Assembly: GCF_002854065.1 (NCBI RefSeq)
Contig: NZ_CP024147.1
Length of the DNA stretch: 64,000 bases
Direction: 5' to 3' (one strand)
Source of the DNA: Escherichia coli
GTDB taxonomy: Bacteria; Pseudomonadota; Gammaproteobacteria; Enterobacterales; Enterobacteriaceae
In this document: positions 22,792-54,516 of the stretch, one piece after another
How positions within the stretch are numbered: the stretch's first letter is position 1
Layout of the letters: each line of letters opens with the position of its first letter
Notes under the pieces: model-generated
Databases searched by the model: none
What the model saw: the letters and a program-made list of their open reading frames with translations, nothing else
Told to the model about the DNA's origin: nothing
Made by a program: the position numbers and the translations under genes

Positions 22792-23295
22792 TTAGAGTTC
22801 GCGTAGCATCCGCACTTCACAATCGACATGGCCCGTGCAGCCAAGCGCATAGTCGATATGCTCAAAGCCCAAATGCTCATAAAGCGCAATGGCTTCCTTT
22901 AAAAAAGCGGTCGTTTCCAGATAGCAGCGTTTGAAGCCCATCTCTCGTGCTTGCTCCATCGCCATTAAGGCCAGTTTTTTCGCCAGCCCTTTACCGCGAA
23001 TAGCCGGAAGAAAATACATCTTTTGCAGTTCGCAAATGTCCGATTCACTACCTGCTAATGGCGCAATCCCACCGCCGCCGACCACTTCACCCTCGTACTC
23101 AACCACCCAATATGCATGACCAGGCTGACTATACACTTGATACAGCTCGTCAAGATTCGGATCGGCGACGGTGTAGCCTTTATCAGCGGTAAGACCGTAT
23201 TCGGCGGATACCTGACGAATGACGCGGGCGATAGCAGGATTATCCTGCAACGTCAGGCGACGCATTACAGGTGATTGCGGCGCAATGTTATTCAT
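22792..23295 (-). CDS. yjgM: GNAT-family N-acetyltransferase YjgM
   Basis: 167-aa ORF with GNAT acetyl-CoA binding motif (RGKGLAKKL). Confidence 0.8.
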
Positions 23296-23487
23296 AGTTT
23301 AACCCAATAAAAATAAAGTAATTATACATTTGTTTAATACCACTCTCTTCTTACGTGCGCAAGCGTCTTATAAAGCAATAAAGTTTTTGCCAGCCTATTA
23401 CTGATAAGAGTATTGTAACGTGGCAGAACATTTTACTGTCTGTATCTATAAATTATATCAATGGATTTTTTAATTCAGGGGATTTTT

Positions 23488-24684
23488 ATGGCTCAAGTTA
23501 TTAATGAAATGGATGTTCCGTCCCATTCGTTTGTTTTTCATGGTACAGGTGAGAGATATTTTCTTATTTGTGTGGTGAATGTGTTGTTAACGATTATAAC
23601 GCTAGGTATCTATTTACCATGGGCATTAATGAAATGTAAGCGTTATCTCTATGCTAATATGGAAGTTAACGGACAACGATTTTCTTATGGGATTACCGGT
23701 GGGAATGTTTTTGTTAGTTGTCTTGTTTTTGTTTTTTTCTATTTCGCAATCTTAATGACAGTGTCAGCAGATATGCCGCTTGTTGGCTGTGTTTTGACTT
23801 TGTCACTGTTGGTTTTGCTTATATTTATGGCAGCAAAAGGACTGCGTTATCAGGCCTTGATGACTAGTCTCAACGGCGTAAGATTTAGTTTTAATTGCTC
23901 TTTGAAAGGGTTCTGGTGGGTAACCTTTTTCTTGCCGATTTTAATGGCCATTGGGATGGGGACTGTTTTCTTTATCTCGACAAAGATGCTACATGCCAAT
24001 AGTTCAAGTAGTGTTATTATATCTGTGGTTCTGATGGCAATAGTTGGTATTGTTTCCATTGGTATTTTTAATGGTACTTTATATAGTCTGGTAATGAGTT
24101 TTCTCTGGAGCAATACCAGTTTCGGTATACATCGTTTCAAGGTAAAATTAGATACTACGTATTGTATAAAATATGCCATTCTCGCATTTTTAGCTTTATT
24201 ACCTTTTCTCGCTGTTGCTGGTTATATTATCTTCGATCAAATATTAAATGCGTATGATAGTTCTGTGTATGCAAATGATGATATTGAGAATTTACAGCAA
24301 TTTATGGAAATGCAACGTAAAATGATAATCGCGCAGTTAATCTATTATTTTGGGATTGCTGTTAGCACCAGTTATTTAACGGTGTCGTTGCGAAATCATT
24401 TTATGAGCAACCTGTCACTGAATGATGGGCGTATTCGTTTTCGCTCAACTTTAACATACCACGGTATGCTTTATCGCATGTGTGCGTTGGTGGTGATATC
24501 CGGGATTACGGGCGGTCTGGCTTATCCACTGCTGAAAATATGGATGATTGACTGGCAGGCAAAAAATACGTATTTGCTGGGCGATTTGGATGACCTTCCT
24601 TTAATCAATAAAGAAGAACAACCAGATAAAGGCTTCTTAGCCAGTATTTCACGGGGAATTATGCCTTCTTTACCATTTCTGTAA
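23488..24684 (+). CDS. yjgN: Inner-membrane DUF898 protein YjgN
   Basis: Polytopic membrane ORF; start placed at MAQVINEMD. Confidence 0.75.
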   Translation: MAQVINEMDVPSHSFVFHGTGERYFLICVVNVLLTIITLGIYLPWALMKCKRYLYANMEVNGQRFSYGITGGNVFVSCLVFVFFYFAILMTVSADMPLVGCVLTLSLLVLLIFMAAKGLRYQALMTSLNGVRFSFNCSLKGFWWVTFFLPILMAIGMGTVFFISTKMLHANSSSSVIISVVLMAIVGIVSIGIFNGTLYSLVMSFLWSNTSFGIHRFKVKLDTTYCIKYAILAFLALLPFLAVAGYIIFDQILNAYDSSVYANDDIENLQQFMEMQRKMIIAQLIYYFGIAVSTSYLTVSLRNHFMSNLSLNDGRIRFRSTLTYHGMLYRMCALVVISGITGGLAYPLLKIWMIDWQAKNTYLLGDLDDLPLINKEEQPDKGFLASISRGIMPSLPFL

Positions 24685-40359: not shown

Positions 40360-40444
40360 GCCGAAGTGGCGAAATCGGTAGACGCAGTTGATTCAAAATC
40401 AACCGTAGAAATACGTGCCGGTTCGAGTCCGGCCTTCGGCACCA
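40360..40444 (+). tRNA. leuX: tRNA-Leu (anticodon CAA)
   Basis: GCCGAAGTGGCGAAATCGGTAGACGCAGTTGATTCAAAATCAACCGTAGAAATACGTGCCGGTTCGAGTCCGGCCTTCGGCACCA: cloverleaf with long variable arm, anticodon loop tTCAAaa, 3' CCA. Confidence 0.95.
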
Positions 40445-40457
40445 TCGGAACATTAAT

Positions 40458-40481
40458 AGACGTCAACGGACGTCTTTTTTT
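40458..40481 (+). terminator. Intrinsic terminator after leuX
   Basis: AGACGTCAACGGACGTCT hairpin followed by T7. Confidence 0.8.
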
Positions 40482-40642
40482 GTGCCTGAAATCCAGTATC
40501 CGCAAGGCTTTCCTCGCTTTTTCACTCAACCTAAGTCAACCTGATTCAATTTACATCAACTTACTGATGCGGGTACAACTGCGGGTATATCGCGGTTCGA
40601 TAATGTTTGTACCCACACAGAACCCTTGAAAGGATACTCATC

Positions 40643-41899
40643 ATGGCTCTGAGTGATGTGAAGGTTCGTTCGGCTAAGCCTGAAGCAAAAGCCTATAAAC
40701 TTACTGATGGTGACGGTTTGGTTTTGCTGGTTCACCCGAATGGCTCAAAATACTGGCGGCTGCGTTATCGTTTTGGCGGTAAGGAGAAGATGCTGGCGCT
40801 TGGGAAATACCCTGAAGTGTCGCTGGCGGATGCCCGGGCACGCCGGGATGAAGCTCGTAAGCTGTTAGCTAATGGCGTCGATCCCAGTGAGAACAAGAAA
40901 GCCGTTAAGGTAGAGCAGGAGCAAGAGGCGATAACGTTTGAATTGGTTGCCAGAGACTGGCACGCCAGCAATCAGAAGTGGTCTGCATCGCATAGAGCTC
41001 GAGTATTGAAAAGCCTCGAAGATAATCTCTTTGCTGCTATCGGTAAGCGGAACATTGCAGAACTGAAAACGCGAGACCTACTTGTACCCATCAAAGCGGT
41101 GGAATCATCCGGGCGACTCGAAGTCGCCGCCCGTTTACAGCAGCGAACTACTGCGATTATGCGCTTTGCCGTTCAGAGCGGCTTAATCGACTATAACCCC
41201 GCACAAGAGATTGCCGGTGCGGTAGCTACGGCGAAAAGACAACATCGTGCTGCTCTGGAACTTAATCGCATTCCTGAATTACTTCACCGCATTGATCACT
41301 ATTCTGGCAGGCCGTTAACTCGACTGGCGGTTGAACTCACTTTGTTGGTTTTCATCCGTTCAAGCGAGCTGCGTTTTGCTCGCTGGTCAGAAGTGGATTT
41401 TGATACTGCCATGTGGACGATTCCAGGGGAGCGTGAACCGCTGGAAGGCGTTAAACATTCTCAGCGTGGTTCAAAGATGCGGACTCCCCATCTTGTTCCT
41501 TTGTCGCGGCAGGCTCTGGCTATTTTGGAAAAGATCAAAAGCATGAATGGGAGCCGTGACCTGATCTTCGTAGGAGATCACGATCCGCGTAAGCCAATGA
41601 GTGAGAATACGCTTAATAAGGCCTTGCGAGTAATGGGCTATGACACGAAAACGGAAGTGTGTGGGCATGGTTTCAGGACGATGGCGTGTAGCTCATTGAT
41701 TGAATCGGGTTTGTGGTCGAGAGATGCGGTGGAAAGGCAGATGAGCCATCAAGAGCGTAGCTCTGTGCGTGCGGCGTATATTCATAAGGCGGAACATTTG
41801 GGAGAACGCAGGTTGATGCTGCAGTGGTGGGCTGATTTTCTTGATGCAAATCGTGAGAAGGCGATGAGTCCATTTGATTTTGCCAAACTTAGGCGGTGA
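40643..41899 (+). CDS. intB: P4-type (IntB-like) tyrosine integrase at the leuX island border
   Basis: About 418-aa ORF with N-terminal DUF4102-like region (KAYKLTDGDGLVLLVHPNGSKYWRLRYRFGGKEK) and C-terminal HGFR/Tyr recombinase motifs; immediately 3' of a tRNA gene. Confidence 0.88.
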   Translation: MALSDVKVRSAKPEAKAYKLTDGDGLVLLVHPNGSKYWRLRYRFGGKEKMLALGKYPEVSLADARARRDEARKLLANGVDPSENKKAVKVEQEQEAITFELVARDWHASNQKWSASHRARVLKSLEDNLFAAIGKRNIAELKTRDLLVPIKAVESSGRLEVAARLQQRTTAIMRFAVQSGLIDYNPAQEIAGAVATAKRQHRAALELNRIPELLHRIDHYSGRPLTRLAVELTLLVFIRSSELRFARWSEVDFDTAMWTIPGEREPLEGVKHSQRGSKMRTPHLVPLSRQALAILEKIKSMNGSRDLIFVGDHDPRKPMSENTLNKALRVMGYDTKTEVCGHGFRTMACSSLIESGLWSRDAVERQMSHQERSSVRAAYIHKAEHLGERRLMLQWWADFLDANREKAMSPFDFAKLRR

Positions 41900-42229
41900 T
41901 TAATTGCGGTTTCTCCCACATTATGCGGAGGGGGACGATGTATTGGTTAAAGCGGTCCATCCGAAGGAGACCAGTAGTGCCAGCAGTAATGCTGTTACTG
42001 CTGGTTAATGACATGCTTTTTTTTGTCTATTTTTCAATCTGCGTTATGTCTCTCGGAGGTAACTCTGTGTTAAATATTGATAGGGCTAGTTTGCACAATG
42101 AAGAACCGAACAAAGTATTGATTTAACATTAGTATTTACTTAGCTGTTCTGACCGGTTTCTGCGATACAATGCTACCAAGTATGTAACTAATTCTAAGCA
42201 AAGGTGCTTTATAATCGAGAGGCGATTGA

Positions 42230-45200
42230 ATGGATGCTTTAAGGGCTACAACATCGACAAATTTCAGTTTTCTCGCTGAACATGACCCGCTGTTTCTACA
42301 AATCGCCACTGCTGCAGAAAACGCCTTCTCAGGCGATCCCAACACCACCTTGATTAAGTTGCGCCAACTAGGTGAAGCCTTAGCACAACATATTGCTGCG
42401 CTGGTCGGGATCACGTTTGATGAACCGCCCACTCAGGCTGATTTACTCTACCGCCTCAATCGCGAGCTAAAATTTGAACCCACGGTACTCGAGCTATTTC
42501 ATCTATTGCGGATAGAGGGCAACAAGGCCACTCACCAGTTCAAAACCAAGCACAAAGAGGCGCTAGATGGCTTAAAAGTGGCGCGAGCGCTAGCTATCTG
42601 GTTCCACCAATCTTTCGGCAAGCAGGGCGCGGCCTTTAAACCCGGCGCTTTTATTGCTCCTCCAGACCCGAGCAATCAGCTTAGGCAACTCCAAACGGAA
42701 ATCGATCGCCTCAAAAGTGAGCTCACTACCGCCAACATACAGCTAGATTCCAGCCAACAGCTGCAAAATTTGCTGGTGCAGGAAAAGAGTGAATATGAAG
42801 CGCTGGCGTTAGCCATGGATGATGAAACTAAGGTGTTAGCATCGCAGGCGAAAGAGCAGGAAATTGCACTCGAACAGCTTCGACAGCAATACGAAGAAAA
42901 ATTAAAAATCCTGCAAGCGCAACTGACCGAAAAAGATGAAAAGCAGGCCCGAACACAACGGCGAGAGTTTGCCCAGAAGAGCCGCCGTGCCAGCCAACAT
43001 ATCGCGTTAAATGAAGAACTCACCCGTATATTGATTGACCAAAACTTAAATGATGCGGGCTGGCTTGCTGACAGTCAGGAACTGACCTGGGCTAACGGAA
43101 CTCGCCCTGAAAAGGGGATAAACAAAGCCATTGCCGAATGGCCTACGGAGTATCAGGGTAAAAAAGGTCGCGCTGATTACGTTCTATTTTGCGGCTTAAC
43201 TCCGCTGGCCACGGTCGAAGCCAAAAAAGAAAACACCGATGTTGCGGGAAAAATTCCGCAGGCAGAACGCTACAGCAAAGGCTTCAAAATCACGTCCCCC
43301 ATGATTGGCGCATGGGAGCGGGAAGGCCGAACCATTGCATGGGCGGATGAGACTGACGGGCATTATATTATCCCGTTTGTATACTCCTGCAACGGTCGCC
43401 CCTACGTGCCACAGTTGGCTGAGTCATCAGGAACTTGGTTCCGGGACGTGCGCGAACCGTCCAACATCCGCCGTGCGCTGCAAAAGTTTCATACCCCGCA
43501 AGGCTTGCTGGATAAACTCGAACGCAGCAAAGACAGCGCCGAACAGAAGCTAAAGCAAGAAGGCTTCGCTTACCTCCGGTTACGCGATTATCAGCAAAAG
43601 GCCATTCTCGCCGTTGAAAGCACATTGGCGCAAAACATCCGCAATGCCCTTCTGGCGATGGCGACCGGCACCGGGAAAACACGCACCATTGTTGGTCTAA
43701 TGTACCGTTTTCTGAAAACTGAACGCTTCAAGCGCATCCTCTTTCTGGTTGACCGTACGGCTTTGGGCGAGCAAGCCACGGACACCTTCAAAGAAGCGCC
43801 GTTGGAGCAAAACCAGACGCTGTCTCAGATTTACAATATCGCTGAGCTCGGCGATATGGCTACACAGGCAGAAACCCGAGTACAGGTCGCGACGGTACAG
43901 GCCATGGTTAGCCGCATTTTTTCCTCGGACACACCACCGCCGGTGGATGAATTTGACTGCATCATCGTTGATGAAGCCCACCGAGGCTACACCTTAGATC
44001 AGGAAATGACTGAAGGGGAACTCTCGACCCGCGACGCCAGCCAATATCTCTCCAGCTACCGTCGGGTGCTCGATTATTTCGACGCGGTAAAAATCGGCCT
44101 TACCGCCACTCCGGCGAAACATACCAGCGATATCTTCGGCAAACCGATTTACATCTACTCCTACCGTGAAGCCGTGGCGGATGATTGGCTTATCGATCAT
44201 GAACCTCCAATCCGTTATGAAACGCTGCTGACGCAAAATGGCATCCACTTTGACAAAGGGAGCCAGGTGCATGCCATTAATATCCACACCGGAGAGGTTG
44301 AGATTGATCAGCTAGAAGACGAAGTGGATTTCAACGTTGATGCATTTAACCGTGGCGTCATCAGTGAAAACTTTAATCGGGTTATTTGCCAACAGCTCGT
44401 GAAAGAGCTCGATCCCTTTGGCGAAGAGAAAACGCTGGTTTTCTGCGTTACAGACAAACATGCCGACATGGTCAAACGCTTGCTGGATGAAGCGTTCTCT
44501 GCTGAATATGAAAACTATAATCAAGCGGCCGTCGAGAAAATCACCGGTGAAAGTGACAAAGTCAAACAGTTGATCAAACAGTATAAAAATGAACGCTATC
44601 CGAATATTGCAATCACCGTTGATTTGCTTAGCACCGGCATTGACGTGCCGAAGATTTGTAATCTGGTTTTCATGCGTCGGGTGAAGTCACGTATTTTATT
44701 TGAACAGATGATAGGCCGCGCAACACGCCGCTGTGATGACATTGGCAAAACGGTCTTCCGTATTTACGATCCAGTAGATATTTATGAGGCTCTCAGTGAC
44801 GTTAACACCATGAAACCGCTGGTCAAAGACCCCAATATCACACTTGAACAATTGGTCGGCGAGCTAACCGATACTGAACAGCTCGAAAAAGCGCTCAACA
44901 GCCCCGGTGAACATACAGGTGAAACTCAGGCTGATGTGGTGCTCAGCCAGTTAAGCCAAAAGGTGATGCGCATCCTACGTAAGGCGGAGAAACGGGCAGA
45001 AAATCGCCCAGTGGTGAAACAAAAATTGGCTGACCTCCATCAACTGTGGGGCGTTGAGCCAAAACAGCTGCATCAACATCTGCATCACTTAGGGCCGCGT
45101 CAGGCGGCAGCCTTCATCCAACAACAGCAAGGGCTAATCTGCCAGCTCAACGAGATAGCTACATTACTCGGAAGTGAATACCGGCCGATTATTTCTGAGC

Positions 45201-45754
45201 ATCATGACCAACTACAGGAACGTAACCAGAGCTACGGTAGCCATCAGCGGCCAGAAGATTACCTGGAAAGCTTTGCGGATTTTATTCAGCAGCAGCTTAA
45301 CCAATCCACTGCGCTGGCCGTGGTTGTCAACAAACCCCGCGACCTCACTCGTGAACAGCTTAAAGAGATCCGCTTATTATTAGACGGTGCGGGCTATTCC
45401 GAAGCTAATCTACAAACCGCCGTGCGTAATCAAACCAATCAGGATATCGCCGCCAGCATTGTCGGCCACATTCGCCGTGCTGCACTAGGGGAGCCTCTTG
45501 TGCCTTTTGCACAGCGCGTATCACAGGCAATGATCAACATTTATAACAGCCGCGCATGGACAACCCAGCAACGAAAATGGCTGGATCGTCTGGCAAAACA
45601 GCTGGTTCATGAAGTGATCATTGATCACCAATTTATTAACAATAGTTTTGCTGATGATGGCGGCGTAAAACAGCTCAATAAGATATTGGTAGACCAACTG
45701 GACAGCGTGCTGGATGAACTTAACGGTGCGATATGGCCACAACAAAGCGCCTGA
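42230..45754 (+). CDS. hsdR: Type I restriction enzyme R subunit (nuclease/helicase)
   Basis: 1174-aa ORF; PD-(D/E)xK-type motif (RADYVLF...VEAKK), SF2 helicase motif I (AMATGTGKT) and motif II (IIVDEAHRG); N-terminal coiled-coil segment. Confidence 0.9.
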   Translation: MDALRATTSTNFSFLAEHDPLFLQIATAAENAFSGDPNTTLIKLRQLGEALAQHIAALVGITFDEPPTQADLLYRLNRELKFEPTVLELFHLLRIEGNKATHQFKTKHKEALDGLKVARALAIWFHQSFGKQGAAFKPGAFIAPPDPSNQLRQLQTEIDRLKSELTTANIQLDSSQQLQNLLVQEKSEYEALALAMDDETKVLASQAKEQEIALEQLRQQYEEKLKILQAQLTEKDEKQARTQRREFAQKSRRASQHIALNEELTRILIDQNLNDAGWLADSQELTWANGTRPEKGINKAIAEWPTEYQGKKGRADYVLFCGLTPLATVEAKKENTDVAGKIPQAERYSKGFKITSPMIGAWEREGRTIAWADETDGHYIIPFVYSCNGRPYVPQLAESSGTWFRDVREPSNIRRALQKFHTPQGLLDKLERSKDSAEQKLKQEGFAYLRLRDYQQKAILAVESTLAQNIRNALLAMATGTGKTRTIVGLMYRFLKTERFKRILFLVDRTALGEQATDTFKEAPLEQNQTLSQIYNIAELGDMATQAETRVQVATVQAMVSRIFSSDTPPPVDEFDCIIVDEAHRGYTLDQEMTEGELSTRDASQYLSSYRRVLDYFDAVKIGLTATPAKHTSDIFGKPIYIYSYREAVADDWLIDHEPPIRYETLLTQNGIHFDKGSQVHAINIHTGEVEIDQLEDEVDFNVDAFNRGVISENFNRVICQQLVKELDPFGEEKTLVFCVTDKHADMVKRLLDEAFSAEYENYNQAAVEKITGESDKVKQLIKQYKNERYPNIAITVDLLSTGIDVPKICNLVFMRRVKSRILFEQMIGRATRRCDDIGKTVFRIYDPVDIYEALSDVNTMKPLVKDPNITLEQLVGELTDTEQLEKALNSPGEHTGETQADVVLSQLSQKVMRILRKAEKRAENRPVVKQKLADLHQLWGVEPKQLHQHLHHLGPRQAAAFIQQQQGLICQLNEIATLLGSEYRPIISEHHDQLQERNQSYGSHQRPEDYLESFADFIQQQLNQSTALAVVVNKPRDLTREQLKEIRLLLDGAGYSEANLQTAVRNQTNQDIAASIVGHIRRAALGEPLVPFAQRVSQAMINIYNSRAWTTQQRKWLDRLAKQLVHEVIIDHQFINNSFADDGGVKQLNKILVDQLDSVLDELNGAIWPQQSA

Positions 45755-45833
45755 TTCTGGTAAAATTCGCTAGCGAAACACGCCTTTTTAATCGCGCTTG
45801 CGGCATATTTCGCGAGCGAATGCAGGAAAAATA

Positions 45834-47402
45834 ATGAGTAATAATAACGATATCGTACAAAAACTGTGGAACCTGTGTGATGTACTGCGTGATGACGGCA
45901 TCAACTACAGCGATTACGTCACCGAACTAGTGCTACTACTGTTTATCAAAATGGTGCATGAAAATACCGAAGCAGAATTATTAGATCAGCACACTTTACC
46001 GCAGGGCTGCCGCTGGAGCGATCTCAACAGTTTATCGGGCCTCAACTTGCTTAACCATTACAAACAAATGCTGTTGAAGCTCTCCAGCGGCAAAGACGCT
46101 GAAGGTAATTCGGTTCATGCTGACCCGCTGATTAGCGCCATTTATGACGATGCGCAGACCCGCCTGCGTGAGCCTCGTCATCTCGAACAGATGATCCGCA
46201 CCCTCGACCAAATTGACTGGTTTAGTGCTAAAAAAGACGGTCTCGGTGATCTTTATGAAGGTCTGCTGGAGAAAAACGCCGGAGAAACAAAATCTGGCGC
46301 AGGTCAATATTTTACGCCGCGGGCCTTAATTAACAGCATGGTACGCTGCATTAAGCCACAGGCTGGAGAAGTGATCCAAGATCCCGCTGCGGGCACCGCA
46401 GGGTTTTTGATTGCCGCCGATCAATACATCAAGCAACAAACTGACAACCTCTACGACCTTACTGCCAAAGCGAGAACCTTTCAAAAAAATAAAGCCTTTA
46501 TTGGTGTGGAACTGGTTCCGTCTACGCGCCGCCTGGCACTGATGAACTGCCTGCTACACGGCATCGAAGGGGATGACGAAGGCGTCGTGCATCAGGGCAA
46601 CGCGTTGGGCATGGTGGGTGCTAGCTTGCCCAAGGCCGATATCATTCTTGCTAACCCGCCGTTCGGTACGGCGAAAGGCGGTGAAGCCAGCATTACTCGT
46701 GATGACTTAACCTACCCAACTAGTAACAAACAGCTAGCGTTTTTACAGCATATCTACCGTAACTTAAAACCGGGTGGCCGTGCAGCTGTGGTGCTACCCG
46801 ACAACGTCCTGTTTGAAGCGGGTGTTGGCACCGATGTACGCCGCGACCTTATGAACAAATGTAACCTGCACACCATTTTACGTTTACCCACCGGGATTTT
46901 TTACGCCCAAGGGGTGAAAACCAACGTTTTGTTCTTCACCAAAGGCAGCGCCAACAACAAACATCAGGATGAAAATTGTACCGAAAACGTCTGGATCTAT
47001 GATCTGCGTAGTAACATGCCAAGCTTTGGCAAACGCACCCCGTTTGGTGAGCAACATTTAAAACCCTTTGAAGCGGTTTACGGCGACGATGCCAACGGTC
47101 AAAGCCCACGCAGTGAAGGGGAATGGAGTTTTAACTCCGACAAACTTGACGTGCCCGATAACGCCGAAAATCAGCACGTTGACAACCGCATGGCGACCAG
47201 CCGTTGGCGCACATTCAGCCGTGAATGGATCCGCGATGTTAAAGGTGATTCATTAGATATTGCATGGCTGAAAGATAACAACAGCGTTGATGTGACTAAC
47301 CTGCCTGAACCTAGTGTATTAGCGATTGAAGCAAAAGAAGAATTAACCACTGCTTTAGCAGAACTGGATGCTTTATTGACTTTATTAGGAGCAACTCGCT
47401 GA
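45834..47402 (+). CDS. hsdM: Type I restriction-modification N6-adenine DNA methyltransferase subunit
   Basis: N-terminal HsdM_N-like sequence (DIVQKLWNLCDVLRDDG), motif I DPAAGTAGFL, catalytic NPPF; start at the ATG with AGGA RBS. Confidence 0.9.
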   Translation: MSNNNDIVQKLWNLCDVLRDDGINYSDYVTELVLLLFIKMVHENTEAELLDQHTLPQGCRWSDLNSLSGLNLLNHYKQMLLKLSSGKDAEGNSVHADPLISAIYDDAQTRLREPRHLEQMIRTLDQIDWFSAKKDGLGDLYEGLLEKNAGETKSGAGQYFTPRALINSMVRCIKPQAGEVIQDPAAGTAGFLIAADQYIKQQTDNLYDLTAKARTFQKNKAFIGVELVPSTRRLALMNCLLHGIEGDDEGVVHQGNALGMVGASLPKADIILANPPFGTAKGGEASITRDDLTYPTSNKQLAFLQHIYRNLKPGGRAAVVLPDNVLFEAGVGTDVRRDLMNKCNLHTILRLPTGIFYAQGVKTNVLFFTKGSANNKHQDENCTENVWIYDLRSNMPSFGKRTPFGEQHLKPFEAVYGDDANGQSPRSEGEWSFNSDKLDVPDNAENQHVDNRMATSRWRTFSREWIRDVKGDSLDIAWLKDNNSVDVTNLPEPSVLAIEAKEELTTALAELDALLTLLGATR

Positions 47403-48778
47403 TGAGTAAGATTATTCTACCTGAAGGGTGGTCCAATTGTACTCTTGCAGATATTGCTGAAGTTAACCCTAAAAAAATAGAGGCTGAACCTGACATAATT
47501 GCAGGCTTTGTTCCTATGTCTCATGCCCCAACAAACTATTACGGGAAATTAGAGTTTGAAGAAAAGACTTGGGGTGAAATTGGTAAATCTTACACTAACT
47601 TTAAAAATGATGATGTGATTTTTGCAAAAGTAACGCCTTGTTTTGAAAATGGTAAAGCAGCAATTGTAAAAGATATGCCAAATAATATCGGTGCAGGCAG
47701 CTCTGAATTTTATGTTCTACGCGCTCGTAATCAAGAGATACCAGCCAGTTATTTACTTGGGATTATTAAGACCAGAAAATTTATGCAGGAAGGTGCAGAA
47801 AATATGACAGGTGCTGTTGGTCTGCGCCGTGTTCCAAGGGCTTTCGTTGAAAGCTTTCCTTTGATACTTCCCCCTCTTGCAGAACATAAAATCATCGCCG
47901 ATAAACTCGATATTCTGTTAGCACAGGTCGAAAGCGCCAAAGCACGCCTTGAGCAAATACCACAAATCCTGAAGCGTTTTCGTCAAGCGGTGTTGGCATC
48001 TGCGGTGAGTGGAAAATTAATACCAAAGGATCAAAAGTCCAATGTACGATTTGATGTCTCAGTTGGTTCACTTTGTATAACTTCGTTTGATGGCCCTTTT
48101 GGGTCAAAATTAAAAACGGCTGATTATACAAATGCGGGTGTTCGTGTCGCTCGACTAGAAAATATTGGTCATTTAACATTTAATGATGAAAAAGAAACGT
48201 ATATCAGCGATACAAAATTTAATAGCCTAAAAGGAAATAAGCTCGAAAAGGATGATGTGTTATTCTCATCATTTGTAGATGAAGATGTTCGTGTATGTCT
48301 TTTTCCACATAACGATAAAATTTTTATAAACAAGGCAGATTGTTTTTGTTTAAGGATCAATCAAGAAATAGCATCACCAAAATATGTAGCTTTAACATTA
48401 GCAAGCAGAACTTCGTATGAACAAATTAAAGCACAGGTTCAAGGTGTAACACGACCTCGTATTAATTTAAAGACGTTAAGGTCTTTGTCGTTTACGTTTC
48501 CTTCTCTACAAGAACAAAACGAAATTGTTCGCCGCGTAGAACAACTCTTCGCCTATGCTGATGGCATCGAAAAGCAGGTACACAACGCCCTTGAGTGCGT
48601 CAACAACCTCACACAGTCGATTCTGGCTAAAGCATTTCGTGGGGAACTCACGGCGCAATGGCGTGCAGAAAATCCCGATTTAATTAGTGGTGAAAATAGC
48701 GCACAAGCATTACTGGTGAAAATTCAACAGCAGCGCAAAAACATAAAAAATATCAAACGCAACAAGGGTAATAATTGA
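47402..48778 (+). CDS. hsdS: Type I restriction-modification specificity subunit
   Basis: 458-aa ORF, start overlaps the hsdM stop (TGATG); two target-recognition-domain halves separated by conserved helical spacers. Confidence 0.85.
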   Translation: MSKIILPEGWSNCTLADIAEVNPKKIEAEPDIIAGFVPMSHAPTNYYGKLEFEEKTWGEIGKSYTNFKNDDVIFAKVTPCFENGKAAIVKDMPNNIGAGSSEFYVLRARNQEIPASYLLGIIKTRKFMQEGAENMTGAVGLRRVPRAFVESFPLILPPLAEHKIIADKLDILLAQVESAKARLEQIPQILKRFRQAVLASAVSGKLIPKDQKSNVRFDVSVGSLCITSFDGPFGSKLKTADYTNAGVRVARLENIGHLTFNDEKETYISDTKFNSLKGNKLEKDDVLFSSFVDEDVRVCLFPHNDKIFINKADCFCLRINQEIASPKYVALTLASRTSYEQIKAQVQGVTRPRINLKTLRSLSFTFPSLQEQNEIVRRVEQLFAYADGIEKQVHNALECVNNLTQSILAKAFRGELTAQWRAENPDLISGENSAQALLVKIQQQRKNIKNIKRNKGNN

Positions 48779-50481
48779 TGCGACTGATTTCTTTAGATTT
48801 GAGAGGCAGCTACAAAGGCTTGAAAGATCAATTCTTTGACTTCAGTTATGCCCAAGATAATATAATTGCATTGATTGGCCTTAATGGTTCTGGTAAATCT
48901 CAATTGCTTGAGTTAATCGGAGAAACTTTTGCTTATCTAGAGCGATGGCAACGTGCAGAGTTCAAAAATAAAACATCGTTAGGTTTTAGCGTCGCGGTAC
49001 ACTATCAATGGGATCTTAGAAATGATAGTGCTGTTATATCTTACCCAGACGAGCTCATGAATCATGGTGAGAGCATTGAGCTAAAGGTAACTATTGAGCT
49101 TGACGGCGATGTGTTTTTAAATGTTCGTGGTACTTATGAGTGGCATGTAATACAGCTTGGTGAGCGCCATTTCCCCATCCCTCTCGTGGTTGGTTATGCT
49201 TCGGGGCTAAACGAAAATTTACAGCGAAGTTTTATGAAAAATGCTGTGCAATATTTTGAAGTCCGTCGAATTAGTAGCCAGCGTCTAAAAATGCTATCAC
49301 GAGAAATTAATGATGAACAGTTGGCTGAAATCAATAAGAAGTATCTTAAAAAATACCCACACATATTTGATCCTTTATCAGAAGGTGATTTTTTTCCAAA
49401 TTATCACCTGAATTTGAGAGAAGTGAATCCTGCCCCTAGCAATTTTAACTATCTTGATTACGATAATATTGGGCTCTTAATTTTATCGCTATCGATTCTT
49501 CCGGCTGGGACAGTATTTCAACTATTAGATGAAATAACATATAAACATCCTGTCAAAGCTGTACTTCATTACGACTTTCGTTCTGGCATCATAGAAGATG
49601 ATGCCATTCGTGATGTGAAAATGTTGATCCGTATAGCAGGCTCCGATCAAGTAAGGCCAACAGGAGGCCGAACTACAGATAACCAGTATGAACTTTATGA
49701 GTTAGAATATCTGTCTGGAGAAATCACTCTCGAATTAAGTGATGAGGCTGTTTTAAACCGACTTCGTGAAGATAACTACTTTGATTCTTTCGCATTATTT
49801 AAAAGACTTAATAATATTCAACAGCTTGGCATAAAGAACTGGGATCGTACATCTCGTTTGAAATTGATGAAAGATGATTTTATAGGTACGGTAAAAAAAC
49901 CGCTTCAGTCAAGGTTACCTTTATCTGTTGTTGAGTTATTAATGGCTAATGAACAGGGCGATACCGTGAAGTTTGATGATTTATCTGACGGTGAAGCTCA
50001 ATTGATTCAGGTTGTTGCCGCAACAAGGATATTCAGTCAGGTTCAAGCGCTATTTCTTTTTGATGAGCCAGAAACACACCTTAATCCGTCTTGGCGTACC
50101 TATTTTCATCAGCGTTTAACTGAAGCATTTACACCTGGAAATGAGAGGAAAGGTCAATCGCAATTCTTTCTATCTACTCACTCACCATTCATGATTTCCT
50201 CGCTCAAACGCGAGAATGTATTTTTCTTCGAGCGTAGTGATATGGGTTGTATCAGTATGGAACCGGTGTCCAGCCAGACTTATGGCACATCATTTGATGT
50301 CTTGGTTAAGAACCACTACGGTCTGCGTTCCCTTATTTCACAGACAGTGGTGAAGGATGTTAAAAATCGATTACCAGAAGATAATAATCCTGAAGCAGTT
50401 ATAGCTGCGCGACTCTGGATTGAGGAAAATCTGGGAGAATCAATGGAAAAGGCTTATCTGCTAAGGAAACTAGATAGCTAA
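48778..50481 (+). CDS. ABC/SMC-like P-loop ATPase (AAA_15/AAA_21-like), candidate defence ATPase (Septu PtuA-like)
   Basis: Walker A GLNGSGKS near the N-terminus; signature-like LSDGEAQL, Walker B LFLFDEPETHLNP and H-loop STHSP near the C-terminus; start overlaps the hsdS stop. Confidence 0.7.
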   Translation: MRLISLDLRGSYKGLKDQFFDFSYAQDNIIALIGLNGSGKSQLLELIGETFAYLERWQRAEFKNKTSLGFSVAVHYQWDLRNDSAVISYPDELMNHGESIELKVTIELDGDVFLNVRGTYEWHVIQLGERHFPIPLVVGYASGLNENLQRSFMKNAVQYFEVRRISSQRLKMLSREINDEQLAEINKKYLKKYPHIFDPLSEGDFFPNYHLNLREVNPAPSNFNYLDYDNIGLLILSLSILPAGTVFQLLDEITYKHPVKAVLHYDFRSGIIEDDAIRDVKMLIRIAGSDQVRPTGGRTTDNQYELYELEYLSGEITLELSDEAVLNRLREDNYFDSFALFKRLNNIQQLGIKNWDRTSRLKLMKDDFIGTVKKPLQSRLPLSVVELLMANEQGDTVKFDDLSDGEAQLIQVVAATRIFSQVQALFLFDEPETHLNPSWRTYFHQRLTEAFTPGNERKGQSQFFLSTHSPFMISSLKRENVFFFERSDMGCISMEPVSSQTYGTSFDVLVKNHYGLRSLISQTVVKDVKNRLPEDNNPEAVIAARLWIEENLGESMEKAYLLRKLDS

Positions 50482-51647
50482 TGTTATTTTCACTTAATCC
50501 ACAGACGCCTCAATGTTCGGTATTTGCATTTCTTAATGCTGAATTTCTTCATTTTTTGCAAGCTACTATTAATGCTGATGTATTCTCAGAAAACTTATTC
50601 CGCACTTTTCCTGAGATGATTGAAGATACAGAAGTACTTGTCCCTAGTGTATGTTGGAGTAATGAGCCCACAAGAGAGAAATTTCTTGGGTTATGGGAAG
50701 CGCGGCCTACGACCGTTGCGCAGCGACGGGAGTTGTCAGACCAAATAAGTCAGGCTCAGGATATTAATGTATTTTTCAACAATACCCAAGCTGTATTGCC
50801 GCAATTAGTACCAGCCTCTTTATTCGAAGCATGTAAGGCGTTAACAACTCATTTGTTTACACGTACCAAAGATCTAGCTCAAGCAAAGTCACAATCCAAT
50901 AGTTCTATTGAAAAACATTATCAGAATTTCGTCAGAGAAAATAATAATAGCCATCTATGTCCTATTTGTGGCACTGCACTTCTCTCTCAAAATCGAGAAA
51001 GCGTAGCAGAGGAAGAACAATGGCGATCAGATTATGACCACATTCTTTGCAAAGATAAATATCCAGTTTACAGTGTCCATCCAGGAAACTTCATTCCGAC
51101 TTGCCATATTTGTAATAGTAAAGCTAAAGGGGCAAGGGACTTACTGAATACTGTTGGTCTCCAGAGACGATTAGCATTTTATCCACTTCCCCCATCACAA
51201 GAGTCATGTGAGCAATTTGTTGTGGTATCGCTTCACCTCAGTGACCGTAGAGATTTAATTGTGAATAGTTGGGAAACACCGTTGGAGTCAGCATCCATTT
51301 TATTCCCCAGAGCTCCAGCTGACATAGTAGATAAAATAGGTGTATGGAAAGAAGTTTATAAAGTACCAGAAAGAGTTGAACAGCATCTTAAGGTCAACTT
51401 TTGCGAGCGTATAGCCGCTGATCTACGACCAGTAAGCTTTGATGATTTCTGTGAGCAATTACATAGATATTCGAGACAAATGCCAGCAGACTATAGAAAA
51501 TCGGAATGGAGGTTTTGGTGGCAGAAAGTCTATGAATTCTTATCAGATCAAAATAGAGACTATTTACACGATGTGTGGATATTAATTGCCTGGAAATTAA
51601 GGTTATCAAATGATGCTGATATGGCTGATACGTTTAATCAAATTTAA
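50481..51647 (+). CDS. HNH-endonuclease-domain protein, partner of the upstream ATPase (Septu PtuB-like)
   Basis: Central motif CPICG...DYDHILCKDKYP...NFIPTCHICNSKAKG (CxxC...DH...N...CxxCN); start overlaps the ATPase stop (TAATG). Confidence 0.65.
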   Translation: MLFSLNPQTPQCSVFAFLNAEFLHFLQATINADVFSENLFRTFPEMIEDTEVLVPSVCWSNEPTREKFLGLWEARPTTVAQRRELSDQISQAQDINVFFNNTQAVLPQLVPASLFEACKALTTHLFTRTKDLAQAKSQSNSSIEKHYQNFVRENNNSHLCPICGTALLSQNRESVAEEEQWRSDYDHILCKDKYPVYSVHPGNFIPTCHICNSKAKGARDLLNTVGLQRRLAFYPLPPSQESCEQFVVVSLHLSDRRDLIVNSWETPLESASILFPRAPADIVDKIGVWKEVYKVPERVEQHLKVNFCERIAADLRPVSFDDFCEQLHRYSRQMPADYRKSEWRFWWQKVYEFLSDQNRDYLHDVWILIAWKLRLSNDADMADTFNQI

Positions 51648-51661
51648 ATTTTACTTCAACA

Positions 51662-51691
51662 GGGTGAGAGTATTGTTACTCTCCCTTTTTA
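51662..51691. terminator. Hairpin plus T-run between convergent HNH gene and nuclease-motif gene
   Basis: GGGTGAGAGTAttgtTACTCTCCC followed by TTTTT; overlaps the last codons of the minus-strand gene. Confidence 0.5.
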
Positions 51692-52848
51692 AAATACATT
51701 GTAGAAGGTGCGCTTATTACTACGCAACCATCAATGCCTTTTATCTTCAATACCCCTTCCTTGAATTTAACATGTTCTTGTGTTGCTCGAGTGCAGTCCC
51801 ACAGGAAGCTGATGATATACGAATCCTTATATTTTTCGTCGACACGATAAAGTGACGCATCTTCTGCAATTTCTCCTATTAGTGCAGGAAACGATTTTTT
51901 TGTATCTTTTCGGTATTTTACTTCAATAATTGTGTGCAGTGATGGCAGATAAAGGTCTATGCGGGGGTTTTTTTGTCCGACAGGCTGAAGATTCACCTCA
52001 TCTGCAATATCGTTGAATATTGGCGCAAGTAGGATATAAAGCAGATTCTGAACATGATATTCATTTTCAACTTGCCACTTTACGGGCTCTGCGCCTCTGG
52101 TTCGACCTGAGTCCTCCCATGTCCATCGTTTTAACCCTGCAGGGATATGTTCCAGAAATCCTAGCAGGTCATCCAGTGTCCATCCAGACGGTGGAGCAAT
52201 GGCAATTTCCTGATTAATTTGATTAAAAACGTAAAGCATTACACACAAGAGAGTAACTGAAGGATTTTCTGTAGCTTGTGCTTGAAATTCGCTCATGAAA
52301 CGTCCGACAAGAGAAAGTCGGTTCTGATGACTATTGATCTTCAATAACTTTCGATAATGAAGGAAGAGTGGTATGCAGGCACTACTAAAGGAGGCTGATT
52401 CGCTGTTACCGACATATGCCGCGATATCTTTCTCGAAGATACTTAGATGGTTGCTTTCAATTTGCTGAGCCAGAAACCCTGAAATCCACTTTTCGAACTC
52501 GTGATTTATGCTCTCATCTTGCATCTGTGCCGTTAGCCATTTCACTGCCATTACACCGAACATATCCGATACCCAAGGTCTCGGTGTTGAATCAATCTTG
52601 GGAGCTTGTCCGAGCAGGCGAGAGACATCCTGGACCGAGACAGTTTCATCTAGAATACCTAAACCTGAAATTGCACAGCGTTGGTATAAAGATAGGTCCG
52701 CAAAGCTAAAATTCGTAATGCAGCTTTTATCTCCTTCCAGGAGACTAAAAAAGCAGGACTTAAATGGATCAATGTGAGCGGATTCGATCACCTTACTGTG
52801 AAAATAGTCGCGTAGCTGATAAACGTTTTCTTTCTCTATAGGAACCAT
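51676..52848 (-). CDS. Predicted PD-(D/E)xK-motif nuclease, candidate effector partner of the upstream Argonaute
   Basis: 390-aa ORF; C-terminal motif ...RIDLYLPSLHTIIEVKY (D-x(n)-E-x-K) preceded by a helix with conserved Glu; start overlaps the pAgo stop by 13 nt. Confidence 0.55.
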   Translation of the reverse strand: MVPIEKENVYQLRDYFHSKVIESAHIDPFKSCFFSLLEGDKSCITNFSFADLSLYQRCAISGLGILDETVSVQDVSRLLGQAPKIDSTPRPWVSDMFGVMAVKWLTAQMQDESINHEFEKWISGFLAQQIESNHLSIFEKDIAAYVGNSESASFSSACIPLFLHYRKLLKINSHQNRLSLVGRFMSEFQAQATENPSVTLLCVMLYVFNQINQEIAIAPPSGWTLDDLLGFLEHIPAGLKRWTWEDSGRTRGAEPVKWQVENEYHVQNLLYILLAPIFNDIADEVNLQPVGQKNPRIDLYLPSLHTIIEVKYRKDTKKSFPALIGEIAEDASLYRVDEKYKDSYIISFLWDCTRATQEHVKFKEGVLKIKGIDGCVVISAPSTMYFKKGE

Positions 52849-53175
52849 TGTGAATGCCCTATTTTTCCAATCATGACTGAGTCACTCCAGCCCGGAAGCT
52901 GATTCAACCATCCTAAATTATGGGCGATAAGATCGGAATAAGTGATGGTAACTGGCATGGGATTGGGGAAGTAACTACGCCAGGAGTGTGATGCGAAACT
53001 GTAGAGCTGAGCACTCAAATACTTAATATCTTTGAAGGTCGAGTCTTTATGAACGTTGACGATCACACCACGTGGATGACCGTCCGTTTCTTGTCGTAAT
53101 TCACGTTGGCCGATCAGGTAAACAAGCATTTCGTTTTTAGAAAGCTTAAACGTATTTCCGCGATGTGTCGCCAGG

Positions 53176-53180
53176 CGTCC
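53176..53180. repeat. IS2 target-site duplication, left copy (CGTCC)
   Basis: Identical 5 bp directly flanking both IS2 ends. Confidence 0.85.
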
Positions 53181-53271
53181 TAGACTGGCCCCCTGAATCT
53201 CCAGACAACCAATATCACTTAAATAAGTGATAGTCTTAATACTAGTTTTTAGACTAGTCATTGGAGAACAG

Positions 53272-53637
53272 ATGATTGATGTCTTAGGGCCGGAGAAACG
53301 CAGACGGCGTACCACACAGGAAAAGATCGCAATTGTTCAGCAGAGCTTTGAACCGGGGATGACGGTCTCCCTCGTTGCCCGGCAACATGGTGTAGCAGCC
53401 AGCCAGTTATTTCTCTGGCGTAAGCAATACCAGGAAGGAAGTCTTACTGCTGTCGCCGCCGGAGAACAGGTTGTTCCTGCCTCTGAACTTGCTGCCGCCA
53501 TGAAGCAGATTAAAGAACTCCAGCGCCTGCTCGGCAAGAAAACGATGGAAAATGAACTCCTCAAAGAAGCCGTTGAATATGGACGGGCAAAAAAGTGGAT
53601 AGCGCACGCGCCCTTATTGCCCGGGGATGGGGAGTAA
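53272..53637 (+). CDS. insC: IS2 OrfA (InsC, HTH protein)
   Basis: 121-aa sequence [26 protein letters not shown]... recognised as IS2 InsC. Confidence 0.9.
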
Positions 53638-54500
53638 GCTTAGTCAGCCGTTGTCTCCGGGTGTCGCGTGCGCAGTTGCACGTCATTCTCAGACGAACCG
53701 ATGACTGGATGGATGGCCGCCGCAGTCGTCACACTGATGATACGGATGTGCTTCTCCGTATACACCATGTTATCGGAGAGCTGCCCACGTATGGTTATCG
53801 TCGGGTATGGGCGCTGCTTCGCAGACAGGCAGAACTTGATGGTATGCCTGCGATCAATGCCAAACGTGTTTACCGGATCATGCGCCAGAATGCGCTGTTG
53901 CTTGAGCGAAAACCTGCTGTACCGCCATCGAAACGGGCACATACAGGCAGAGTGGCCGTGAAAGAAAGCAATCAGCGATGGTGCTCTGACGGGTTCGAGT
54001 TCTGCTGTGATAACGGAGAGAGACTGCGTGTCACGTTCGCGCTGGACTGCTGTGATCGTGAGGCACTGCACTGGGCGGTCACTACCGGCGGCTTCAACAG
54101 TGAAACAGTACAGGACGTCATGCTGGGAGCGGTGGAACGCCGCTTCGGCAACGATCTTCCGTCGTCTCCAGTGGAGTGGCTGACGGATAATGGTTCATGC
54201 TACCGGGCTAATGAAACACGCCAGTTCGCCCGGATGTTGGGACTTGAACCGAAGAACACGGCGGTGCGGAGTCCGGAGAGTAACGGAATAGCAGAGAGCT
54301 TCGTGAAAACGATAAAGCGTGACTACATCAGTATCATGCCCAAACCAGACGGGTTAACGGCAGCAAAGAACCTTGCAGAGGCGTTCGAGCATTATAACGA
54401 ATGGCATCCGCATAGTGCGCTGGGTTATCGCTCGCCACGGGAATATCTGCGGCAGCGGGCTTGTAATGGGTTAAGTGATAACAGATGTCTGGAAATATAG
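53595..54500 (+). CDS. insD: IS2 OrfB (InsD, DDE transposase; expressed as an OrfAB fusion by -1 frameshift)
   Basis: 301-aa ORF overlapping insC in the -1 frame; DDE integrase-core-like sequence. Confidence 0.9.
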
Positions 54501-54511
54501 GGGCAAATCCA

Positions 54512-54516
54512 CGTCC
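54512..54516. repeat. IS2 target-site duplication, right copy (CGTCC)
   Basis: Identical 5 bp directly flanking both IS2 ends. Confidence 0.85.

Follow-up and report, generated by a model that had tools for sequence, protein, structure and literature searches.

The question raised by this locus is what the long N-terminal part of a Type I restriction subunit does. The window, by which we mean the whole stretch of 64,000 nucleotides analysed (Escherichia coli, contig NZ_CP024147.1), carries at positions 42230-45754 the gene hsdR for the restriction subunit of an EcoKI-like Type I restriction-modification (R-M) system, and in this protein about 260 residues stand N-terminal to the PD-(D/E)xK nuclease domain. 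The answer that we favour, and hold to be fairly probable, is that this is an HsdR of the EcoKI clade on an island at leuX, in which an N-terminal HEPN domain and a helical stalk form a self-contained module whose likeliest role is that of a repressed RNase head.

Layout of the HsdR protein

The features of the gene and of its product are the following.

42230..45754, + strand: hsdR, 1174-residue restriction subunit of the EcoKI-like Type I R-M system (open reading frame, NCBIfam, PADLOC, alignment with EcoKI)
42254..42634, + strand: HEPN-fold DUF4145 domain (predicted), residues 9-135
42509..42535, + strand: HEPN signature R94-IEG-N98-KAT-H102, that is R-x7-H with N four residues before H (conservation, spacing as in RAZR)
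42668..42994, + strand: helical stalk, residues 147-255 (AlphaFold2 secondary structure, heptad test, length conservation)
43013..43549, + strand: PD-(D/E)xK nuclease, residues 262-440 (alignment with EcoKI, Pfam HSDR_N, 3h1t, AlphaFold2)
43574..44779, + strand: superfamily 2 (SF2) translocase motor, residues 449-850 (Pfam, alignment with 3h1t, alignment with EcoKI)
45254..45733, + strand: C-terminal EcoEI_R_C, residues 1009-1168 (Pfam PF08463, 116.7 bits)

The order of domains is thus HEPN DUF4145, three-helix stalk, PD-(D/E)xK nuclease, SF2 translocase, a variable middle region and EcoEI_R_C. The first-pass annotation, made from the sequence before this analysis, had read the open reading frame as HsdR with exact coordinates, and a full-length match to the NCBIfam model NF008521 bears it out. 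The frame begins with ATG and runs uninterrupted for 3525 nt, as seen in the list of open reading frames and the translation; the RefSeq annotation of an identical copy of the gene uses the same start codon, and GAGAGG lies 8-13 nt 5' of the ATG. Also, a perfect TATAAT hexamer is found at 42211-42216, 14 nt 5' of the start codon. No full promoter was called there by a consensus promoter scan, and the promoter and terminator scans of 41850-45900 gave nothing exceeding chance frequency.

The nuclease motif had likewise been placed correctly after the long N-terminal segment: RADYVLF begins at residue 314 and VEAKK at residue 329, and in a pairwise alignment D316, E330 and K332 (nt 43175-43225) correspond to the catalytic D298, E312 and K314 of EcoKI. 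A beta-sheet core is predicted for this domain in an AlphaFold2 model of residues 1-445, and Pfam HSDR_N gives a weak match, though above its cut-off, over residues 209-351. In the motor, the Walker A sequence GTGKT starts at residue 480, with K483 aligned to K477 of EcoKI, and DEAH is at 581; Pfam ResIII covers residues 449-629 (119 bits) and Helicase_C residues 724-833 (38 bits). The HsdR fragment of Vibrio vulnificus, 3h1t, aligns with residues 250-350 and 449-847. The marks of a Type I HsdR, namely the PD-(D/E)xK motif, Walker A, DEAH, EcoEI_R_C and the neighbouring hsdM and hsdS, are therefore all present. Since all the relevant motifs are there, and by what is known of EcoKI, DNA restriction by this protein is probably conventional, with R2M2S1 assembly, ATP-driven translocation and PD-(D/E)xK cleavage. 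The enzyme had been called probably conventional for its family, and by its EcoKI-type match and aligned motifs it looks so.

One could suppose that the long N-terminus is an artefact of annotation or assembly, in which a stand-alone DUF4145 gene was wrongly joined to hsdR, because many database matches to the N-terminus are proteins of 150-490 residues named 'DUF4145 domain-containing protein'. However, most of these short entries are flagged as partial or come from short metagenome contigs, and the reading frame here is single and unbroken. The exact 1174-residue protein occurs on 224 contigs from several enterobacterial genera (label 'MULTISPECIES Enterobacteriaceae'), and 16 full-length relatives with the HsdR architecture (1124-1199 residues) share its domain order, as does EcoKI. 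Given the continuous frame and the collinear homologues, we rejected a gene-fusion artefact and leave it next to no probability.

A HEPN domain at the N-terminus

For the N-terminal region, a helical domain had been described, and this description was right as far as it went; what it overlooked is the identity of the domain as HEPN/DUF4145 with a near-invariant R...N...H. An AlphaFold2 model of residues 1-147, with an alignment of 100 relatives as input, contains six helices and has a predicted local distance difference test score (pLDDT) of 94.3 and a predicted template modelling score (pTM) of 0.88. All structure predictions in this study were of monomers, and only the secondary structure and the confidence were read from the models. 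On this prediction the domain has the all-alpha character of the HEPN fold. When residues 1-147 are searched in isolation, the DUF4145 profile (PF13643) scores 26.2 bits against a Pfam gathering cut-off of 23.1, and the same profile matches 95 of 100 relatives.

The signature residues are strongly conserved. Among about 250 relatives with 27-68% identity, R94 is kept in 249/254, G97 in 246/252, N98 in 250/253 and H102 in 251/253, and R94, N98 and H102 are invariant in two further alignments (A1 and A2). Also near-invariant are E30, R45, E49 and W124, and the domain as a whole has 39% identity among the full-length relatives. In the HsdR of EcoKI, RRIGNQAVH is the counterpart of the RIEGNKATH found here. 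The spacing from R94 to H102 (R-x7-H) equals that of the catalytic R146 and H154 in RAZR, whose DUF4145 domain cuts single-stranded RNA and requires both residues (2026, PMC13017515).

Judged by profile and predicted model together, residues 9-135 are a HEPN-fold DUF4145 domain. DUF4145 belongs to the HEPN superfamily, with fusions to restriction endonuclease and SF-II helicase modules (Anantharaman et al. 2013, PMC3710099). The assignment is therefore not new (Pfam; Anantharaman et al. 2013), but it is absent from the restriction-enzyme reviews searched.

A helical stalk of constrained length

Between the HEPN domain and the nuclease, the first-pass annotation had noted a heptad-like segment rich in Gln, Glu and Leu; the peptide that it cited, LRQLQTEIDRLKSELTTANIQLDSSQQLQNLLVQEKSEYEALALA, is residues 151-195. 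The composition is as described, with one Pro, no Gly and 44% Q+L+E in residues 146-265. In the model of residues 1-445 (pLDDT 92.3, pTM 0.87), helices are predicted at 147-171, 175-233 (59 residues) and 237-255, separated by turns of 3 residues, with a pLDDT of 70-96. Because the turns are this short, and from the helix lengths, we infer that the three helices pack antiparallel into a rod of about 90 Å.

The heptad character holds in part. In one fixed register, residues 148-234 show a hydrophobic excess at positions a and d of 0.45 compared with 0.16 +/- 0.07 in shuffles (p = 0.0008), and the strongest part is residues 148-182 (p = 0.0016). On the other hand, residues 190-234 taken by themselves do not reach significance (p = 0.26), nor does a Fourier test over residues 146-262 for a 3.5-residue period (p about 0.24), and the heptad test on 23 homologues was inconsistent, so that strict heptads are not a steady feature. 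With the Fourier test null and the heptads inconsistent among these homologues, the description as a conserved canonical coiled coil was dropped, and residues 147-255 are better called a helical stalk with partial heptad character. What relatives share in the stalk is a helical segment poor in Pro and Gly, of little sequence conservation (21% mean identity) but constrained length, the distance from W124 to D270 being 130-149 residues in 22 of 24 relatives. This combination suggests that the stalk acts as a spacer or lever.

These results also bear on another explanation, in which the first 260 residues have no domain identity of their own and form an unspecialised helical or coiled-coil extension for subunit contacts, as is typical of families IA and IB. 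The segment is indeed helical and partly heptad, and the extension is found in EcoKI as well. Nevertheless, residues 9-135 are a globular HEPN fold with a near-invariant signature rather than a coiled coil, and IB-type HsdR proteins have no such extension. We consider this explanation very improbable.

Distribution of the HEPN-stalk cassette

Residues 1-278 were compared with 1.84 billion cluster representatives, and 1785 clusters matched at E <= 1e-3, of which 712 matched at E <= 1e-10. Among the best 150 matches listed, the cassette is almost always at the N-terminus of the protein. Besides the HsdR-like relatives, it is joined to quite different partners: a superfamily 1 (SF1) helicase with TBP-TOTE (P0206), a UvrD helicase (P0261, which has the shortest linker of the set), a Ser/Thr kinase (P0227), and, in P0181 and P0200, a nuclease with no accompanying SF2 motor. 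In all five of these proteins the motif is kept as R..GN..H, and the helical linker has roughly 110-150 residues. Also, the PADLOC candidate PDC-M16A matches residues 9-268 of HsdR. With payloads as unrelated as these, the cassette behaves, as far as these matches can tell, as a portable module of conflict systems. Its attachment to such payloads and the near-invariance of R94, N98 and H102 further argue that selection on the cassette is strong, and that it works as a functional unit of its own and is not padding.

These architectures come from the cluster representatives, since the matches of the N-terminal 278 residues in a separate homologue search were all fragments, under 500 residues long. 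In that search the closest relatives from other species were those of marine gammaproteobacteria, for example Marinobacter, Halomonas and Vibrio. The 90% cluster of the whole HsdR has 247 members, from E. coli, Enterobacter, Klebsiella, Pantoea, Serratia, Yersinia and Cronobacter. This HsdR is found in only one of 5426 complete E. coli genomes, compared with 797 for the classical IA hsdR. Among solved structures, residues 1-250 have no sequence match in any PDB chain, and a Foldseek comparison of the 445-residue model with the PDB gave no global match (E > 0.1) and no solved structure with the three-part N-terminal architecture.

Relation to EcoKI and the Type I families

The enzyme had been assigned to an EcoKI-type family written as IA/IB, and the two halves of this assignment fared differently. 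The EcoKI-type half stands. The HsdR of EcoKI (K-12) is collinear with the present protein over residues 10-1169 at 40% identity, N-terminal domain and stalk included, and the long N-terminal extension had rightly been taken as a trait of the EcoKI-type family. The EcoKI-type equivalog NF008521 (PRK11448) scores 1615.7 bits against a cut-off of 729, aligning residues 9-1172 with profile positions 3-1122 of 1123, and the PADLOC model REase_I PDLC03042 scores 894 bits over profile positions 4-1167 of 1170.

The IB half was rejected. The EcoAI/IB equivalog NF046051 reaches 249.7 bits, far under its cut-off of 550. In its best stretch, position 92 of the 768-position profile aligns to residue 381, so there is no room for a 260-residue N-terminal module in an IB-type HsdR. 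Families ID and IE were set aside indirectly, in that the sole full-length profile matches are to EcoKI-type models; StySBLI, KpnAI and KpnBI lay outside the comparison.

Within a family, HsdR and HsdM are more than 90% identical, while identity between families is 17-26% for HsdR and 25-33% for HsdM; complementation is the most important family rule, and Lactococcus systems with 42% and 37% identity in HsdR and HsdM still complement (all PMC2481252). With 40% in HsdR and 59% in HsdM relative to EcoKI, the present system falls short of the classical IA identity rule of more than 90%, but both values are above the interfamily range and near those of Lactococcus. The order of segments in HsdS is S1-D1-S2-D2 as in IA, compared with D2-S1-D1-S2 in IB (PMC3874165). 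From this architecture and these comparisons, hsdRMS is best placed as an EcoKI-clade system affiliated with IA, but it is neither IB nor a close IA allele.

The target recognition domains (TRDs) of HsdS give a different picture from its conserved regions. The TRD comparison that had been proposed for predicting the target was made here with EcoKI, and the TRDs have 12-20% identity, that is, they are unrelated; a new specificity is therefore expected. The central conserved region is 84% identical to that of the EcoKI HsdS without indels, and the C-terminal region 84-100%, so that the conserved regions overall are 84-100% identical. Because the central region equals that of EcoKI in length, a spacing of 8 bp between the methylated adenines (N6 spacer) is predicted. 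The contrast between the conserved regions of HsdS and the lower identities of HsdM and HsdR forms a mosaic, and this mosaic pattern suggests that hsdS segments were recombined between lineages.

What the HEPN module may do

In EcoKI, two HsdR subunits sit on an M2S1 core, and an unmethylated target leads to ATP-driven DNA pumping and a PD-(D/E)xK cut. The HsdR described here would work in the same way, and the system's own TRDs would give it a new specificity. For the HEPN-stalk cassette, by analogy with known HEPN RNases, the likeliest single role is that of a catalytically competent but normally repressed RNase head, which we propose tentatively. HEPN active sites are usually completed by dimerisation, and for this reason the head might switch on when two HsdR N-termini come together; a stalled or blocked motor could be another trigger. 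The stalk would hold the HEPN domain at a set distance from the DNA nuclease or work between them as a lever. For the same reason of dimerisation, the catalytic and the dimerisation or regulatory roles of the domain are not mutually exclusive. The head may thus complement DNA restriction with a second, RNA-directed layer, as was proposed for R-M-fused HEPN domains, which were seen as RNases released upon restriction failure (Anantharaman et al. 2013, PMC3710099).

The chief alternative is that the HEPN domain of this protein has no RNase function and is a module for dimerisation, assembly or regulation, with R, N and H at an interface or in ligand binding. The cassette would then drive R-dependent dimerisation on DNA, or gate the nuclease or motor and the ClpXP-dependent alleviation of restriction, with the stalk setting the reach. 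Several observations on EcoKI are in its favour. By atomic force microscopy, EcoKI dimerises at its targets before translocation, and does so strongly only as R2M2S1 and not as the M2S1 core (PMC2665228). Its N-terminal extension, which EcoR124I does not have, is called 'required' and protease-sensitive (PMC12707154). The ClpX degron of the EcoKI HsdR was found at neither terminus and is perhaps internal or conformational (PMC4231737). Also, several of the top structural neighbours of the HEPN domain are non-catalytic, for example Roquin and sacsin. On the other hand, R, N and H are each retained in about 98% or more of the roughly 250 relatives, whereas several non-catalytic HEPN families are without the R/H motif (family table, PMC3710099). 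The cassette is also found on kinases and SF1 helicases, which have no connection with EcoKI-type dimerisation, and in RAZR a DUF4145 domain of equal motif spacing has demonstrated RNase activity. We regard a purely non-catalytic role as doubtful. The probability that is left beyond these two roles goes to other or mixed ones.

A number of points weigh against the repressed RNase head, or against its premises. In the full-length HsdR, DUF4145 scores only 22.3 bits (residues 28-117), slightly under the cut-off of 23.1, and the R-x7-H spacing is longer than the canonical HEPN Rx4-6H. The HEPN fold of residues 9-135 rests on prediction, as does the antiparallel packing of the stalk, which is drawn from secondary structure. 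T7 expressing Ocr grows on K-12, and a simple release of the RNase by Ocr binding therefore seems unlikely for EcoKI. RNase activity of EcoKI is unreported in the literature searched, which also supports the dimerisation or regulatory role; no title or abstract in that literature links EcoKI or HsdR with HEPN, and HEPN is absent from the text of the 2025 EcoSal Plus review (PMC12707154). Finally, that review's word 'required' for the extension speaks more for a structural or regulatory part in DNA restriction than for a second effector that the enzyme could do without.

A wider claim can be made from the RNase role, that EcoKI-clade enzymes, textbook EcoKI included, are dual DNA/RNA nucleases whose HEPN head is activated by meeting N-termini or by stalling. 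The N-termini would meet through dimerising complexes or when converging motors collide; otherwise the trigger would be an enzyme that is stalled or blocked. The restriction subunit would then contain its own abortive-infection-like back-up, the fixed-length stalk would link the HEPN head to the state of the motor, and on the helicases and kinases of other conflict systems the cassette would serve as a portable effector. We consider this general form unlikely at present.

The operon and the leuX island

The other genes of the system and the anchor of the island are these.

40360..41899, + strand: leuX tRNA-Leu(CAA), 40360-40444, and tyrosine integrase, 40607-41899 (ARAGORN; Pfam; RefSeq context of the identical copy)
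45834..47402, + strand: hsdM, 522 residues from the RefSeq start, with the frame open from TTG at 45798 (Pfam N6_Mtase, 261 bits, and HsdM_N)
47402..48778, + strand: hsdS, 458 residues, S1-D1-S2-D2 (Pfam Methylase_S, two stretches)

The integrase has the Pfam domains Arm-DNA-bind_3, Phage_int_M and Phage_integrase, and hsdRMS sits just inside the island that it anchors together with leuX. In E. coli, leuX is known as defence 'hotspot 37' (PMC12707154).

Directly 3' of hsdS, with overlapping stop and start codons, two further genes follow on the + strand. The first (48775-50481) encodes an AAA/ABC-type ATPase, which matches TIGR04435 'restriction system-associated AAA ATPase' at 170 bits, under the cut-off, and PADLOC PtuA at 149 bits. 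The second (50481-51647) encodes a 388-residue protein with weak PtuB, PDC-M62B and PDC-M01B matches in residues 140-225. Together they look like a Septu-like pair within the hsd operon. Their GC content drops to 0.38-0.40, compared with 0.47-0.50 across hsdRMS, and this suggests a separate origin.

Farther on, a gene on the - strand (51676-52848) encodes an intact PD-(D/E)XK 'Aga Helical-REase', a partner of prokaryotic Argonaute (pAgo) (PADLOC PDLC02404, 439 bits). The class II pAgo gene itself, on the - strand at 52836-56403, is interrupted by an insertion from 53182 to about 54512. We take the insertion to be IS2, by its end and InsC sequence, and the end point is estimated from the 1331-bp length of IS2. 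In E. coli VTB96935v, the pAgo is intact (743 residues; PADLOC pAgo_II, 971 bits), and in the segments compared, hsdR and its flank up to the insertion are identical to the window, which therefore belongs to another strain. A second stretch of low GC content, 0.40-0.45 compared with about 0.52 on either side, is located at 18000-24000, well upstream of the leuX island.

Significance

The hsdR gene has a familiar architecture, and its sequence is already in the databases. The locus as a whole is an EcoKI-like Type I system that is intact, horizontally mobile and of new specificity, rare in E. coli and shared across Enterobacterales. What deserves attention is an under-used link between three lines of work: the restriction literature describes a required, protease-sensitive extension, comparative genomics (2013) recognised HEPN, and RNase activity has been demonstrated for a DUF4145 domain (2026). 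Because R94, N98 and H102 hardly vary among about 250 relatives, the role of the HEPN domain can be tested directly, in EcoKI as well. If the RNase is active, an RNA-directed activity would be added to one of the oldest model enzymes of molecular biology; if it is not, a role in dimerisation or in restriction alleviation would be indicated.

Comparison with known systems

The closest known system is EcoKI, the prototype of family IA. Its HsdR has 1170 residues compared with 1174 here, the same five-domain order, aligned catalytic residues and the shared HEPN motif. It differs in that identity is limited to 40% in HsdR and 59% in HsdM, with unrelated TRDs, and in its location. The hsd genes of EcoKI are in the immigration control region by mrr and mcrBC, whereas hsdRMS here is in a leuX integrase island, and symE takes the place of the Septu-like ATPase pair that follows hsdRMS here.

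The other Type I enzymes share the motor but not the module. EcoAI and EcoEI (IB) have the SF2 motor and the C-terminal EcoEI_R_C, and no HEPN-stalk module according to the NF046051 profile. EcoR124I (IC, 2W00) and the V. vulnificus fragment (3H1T) have PD-(D/E)xK and two RecA-like motor domains, but their nuclease is at the very N-terminus, without HEPN and stalk.

RAZR / PD-T7-4, a zinc finger joined to a DUF4145 HEPN RNase (Nature 2026, PMC13017515), shares R-x7-H and an anti-phage context with HsdR. However, RAZR is a small stand-alone protein that forms 24-mer rings around phage proteins and whose RNase activity is demonstrated, while the HEPN domain of HsdR is the N-terminus of a 1174-residue DNA motor-nuclease; the two are likened here by motif spacing. 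PrrC and RloC (EcoprrI) offer a likeness at the level of the system, in that a HEPN RNase backs up the Type I enzyme to which it is functionally coupled, and Anantharaman et al. used this analogy for R-M-fused HEPN domains (PMC3710099). Their genes lie inside or next to the hsd genes and code for separate ABC-ATPase-HEPN proteins of another HEPN family, whereas in the system described here the HEPN domain is part of HsdR itself.

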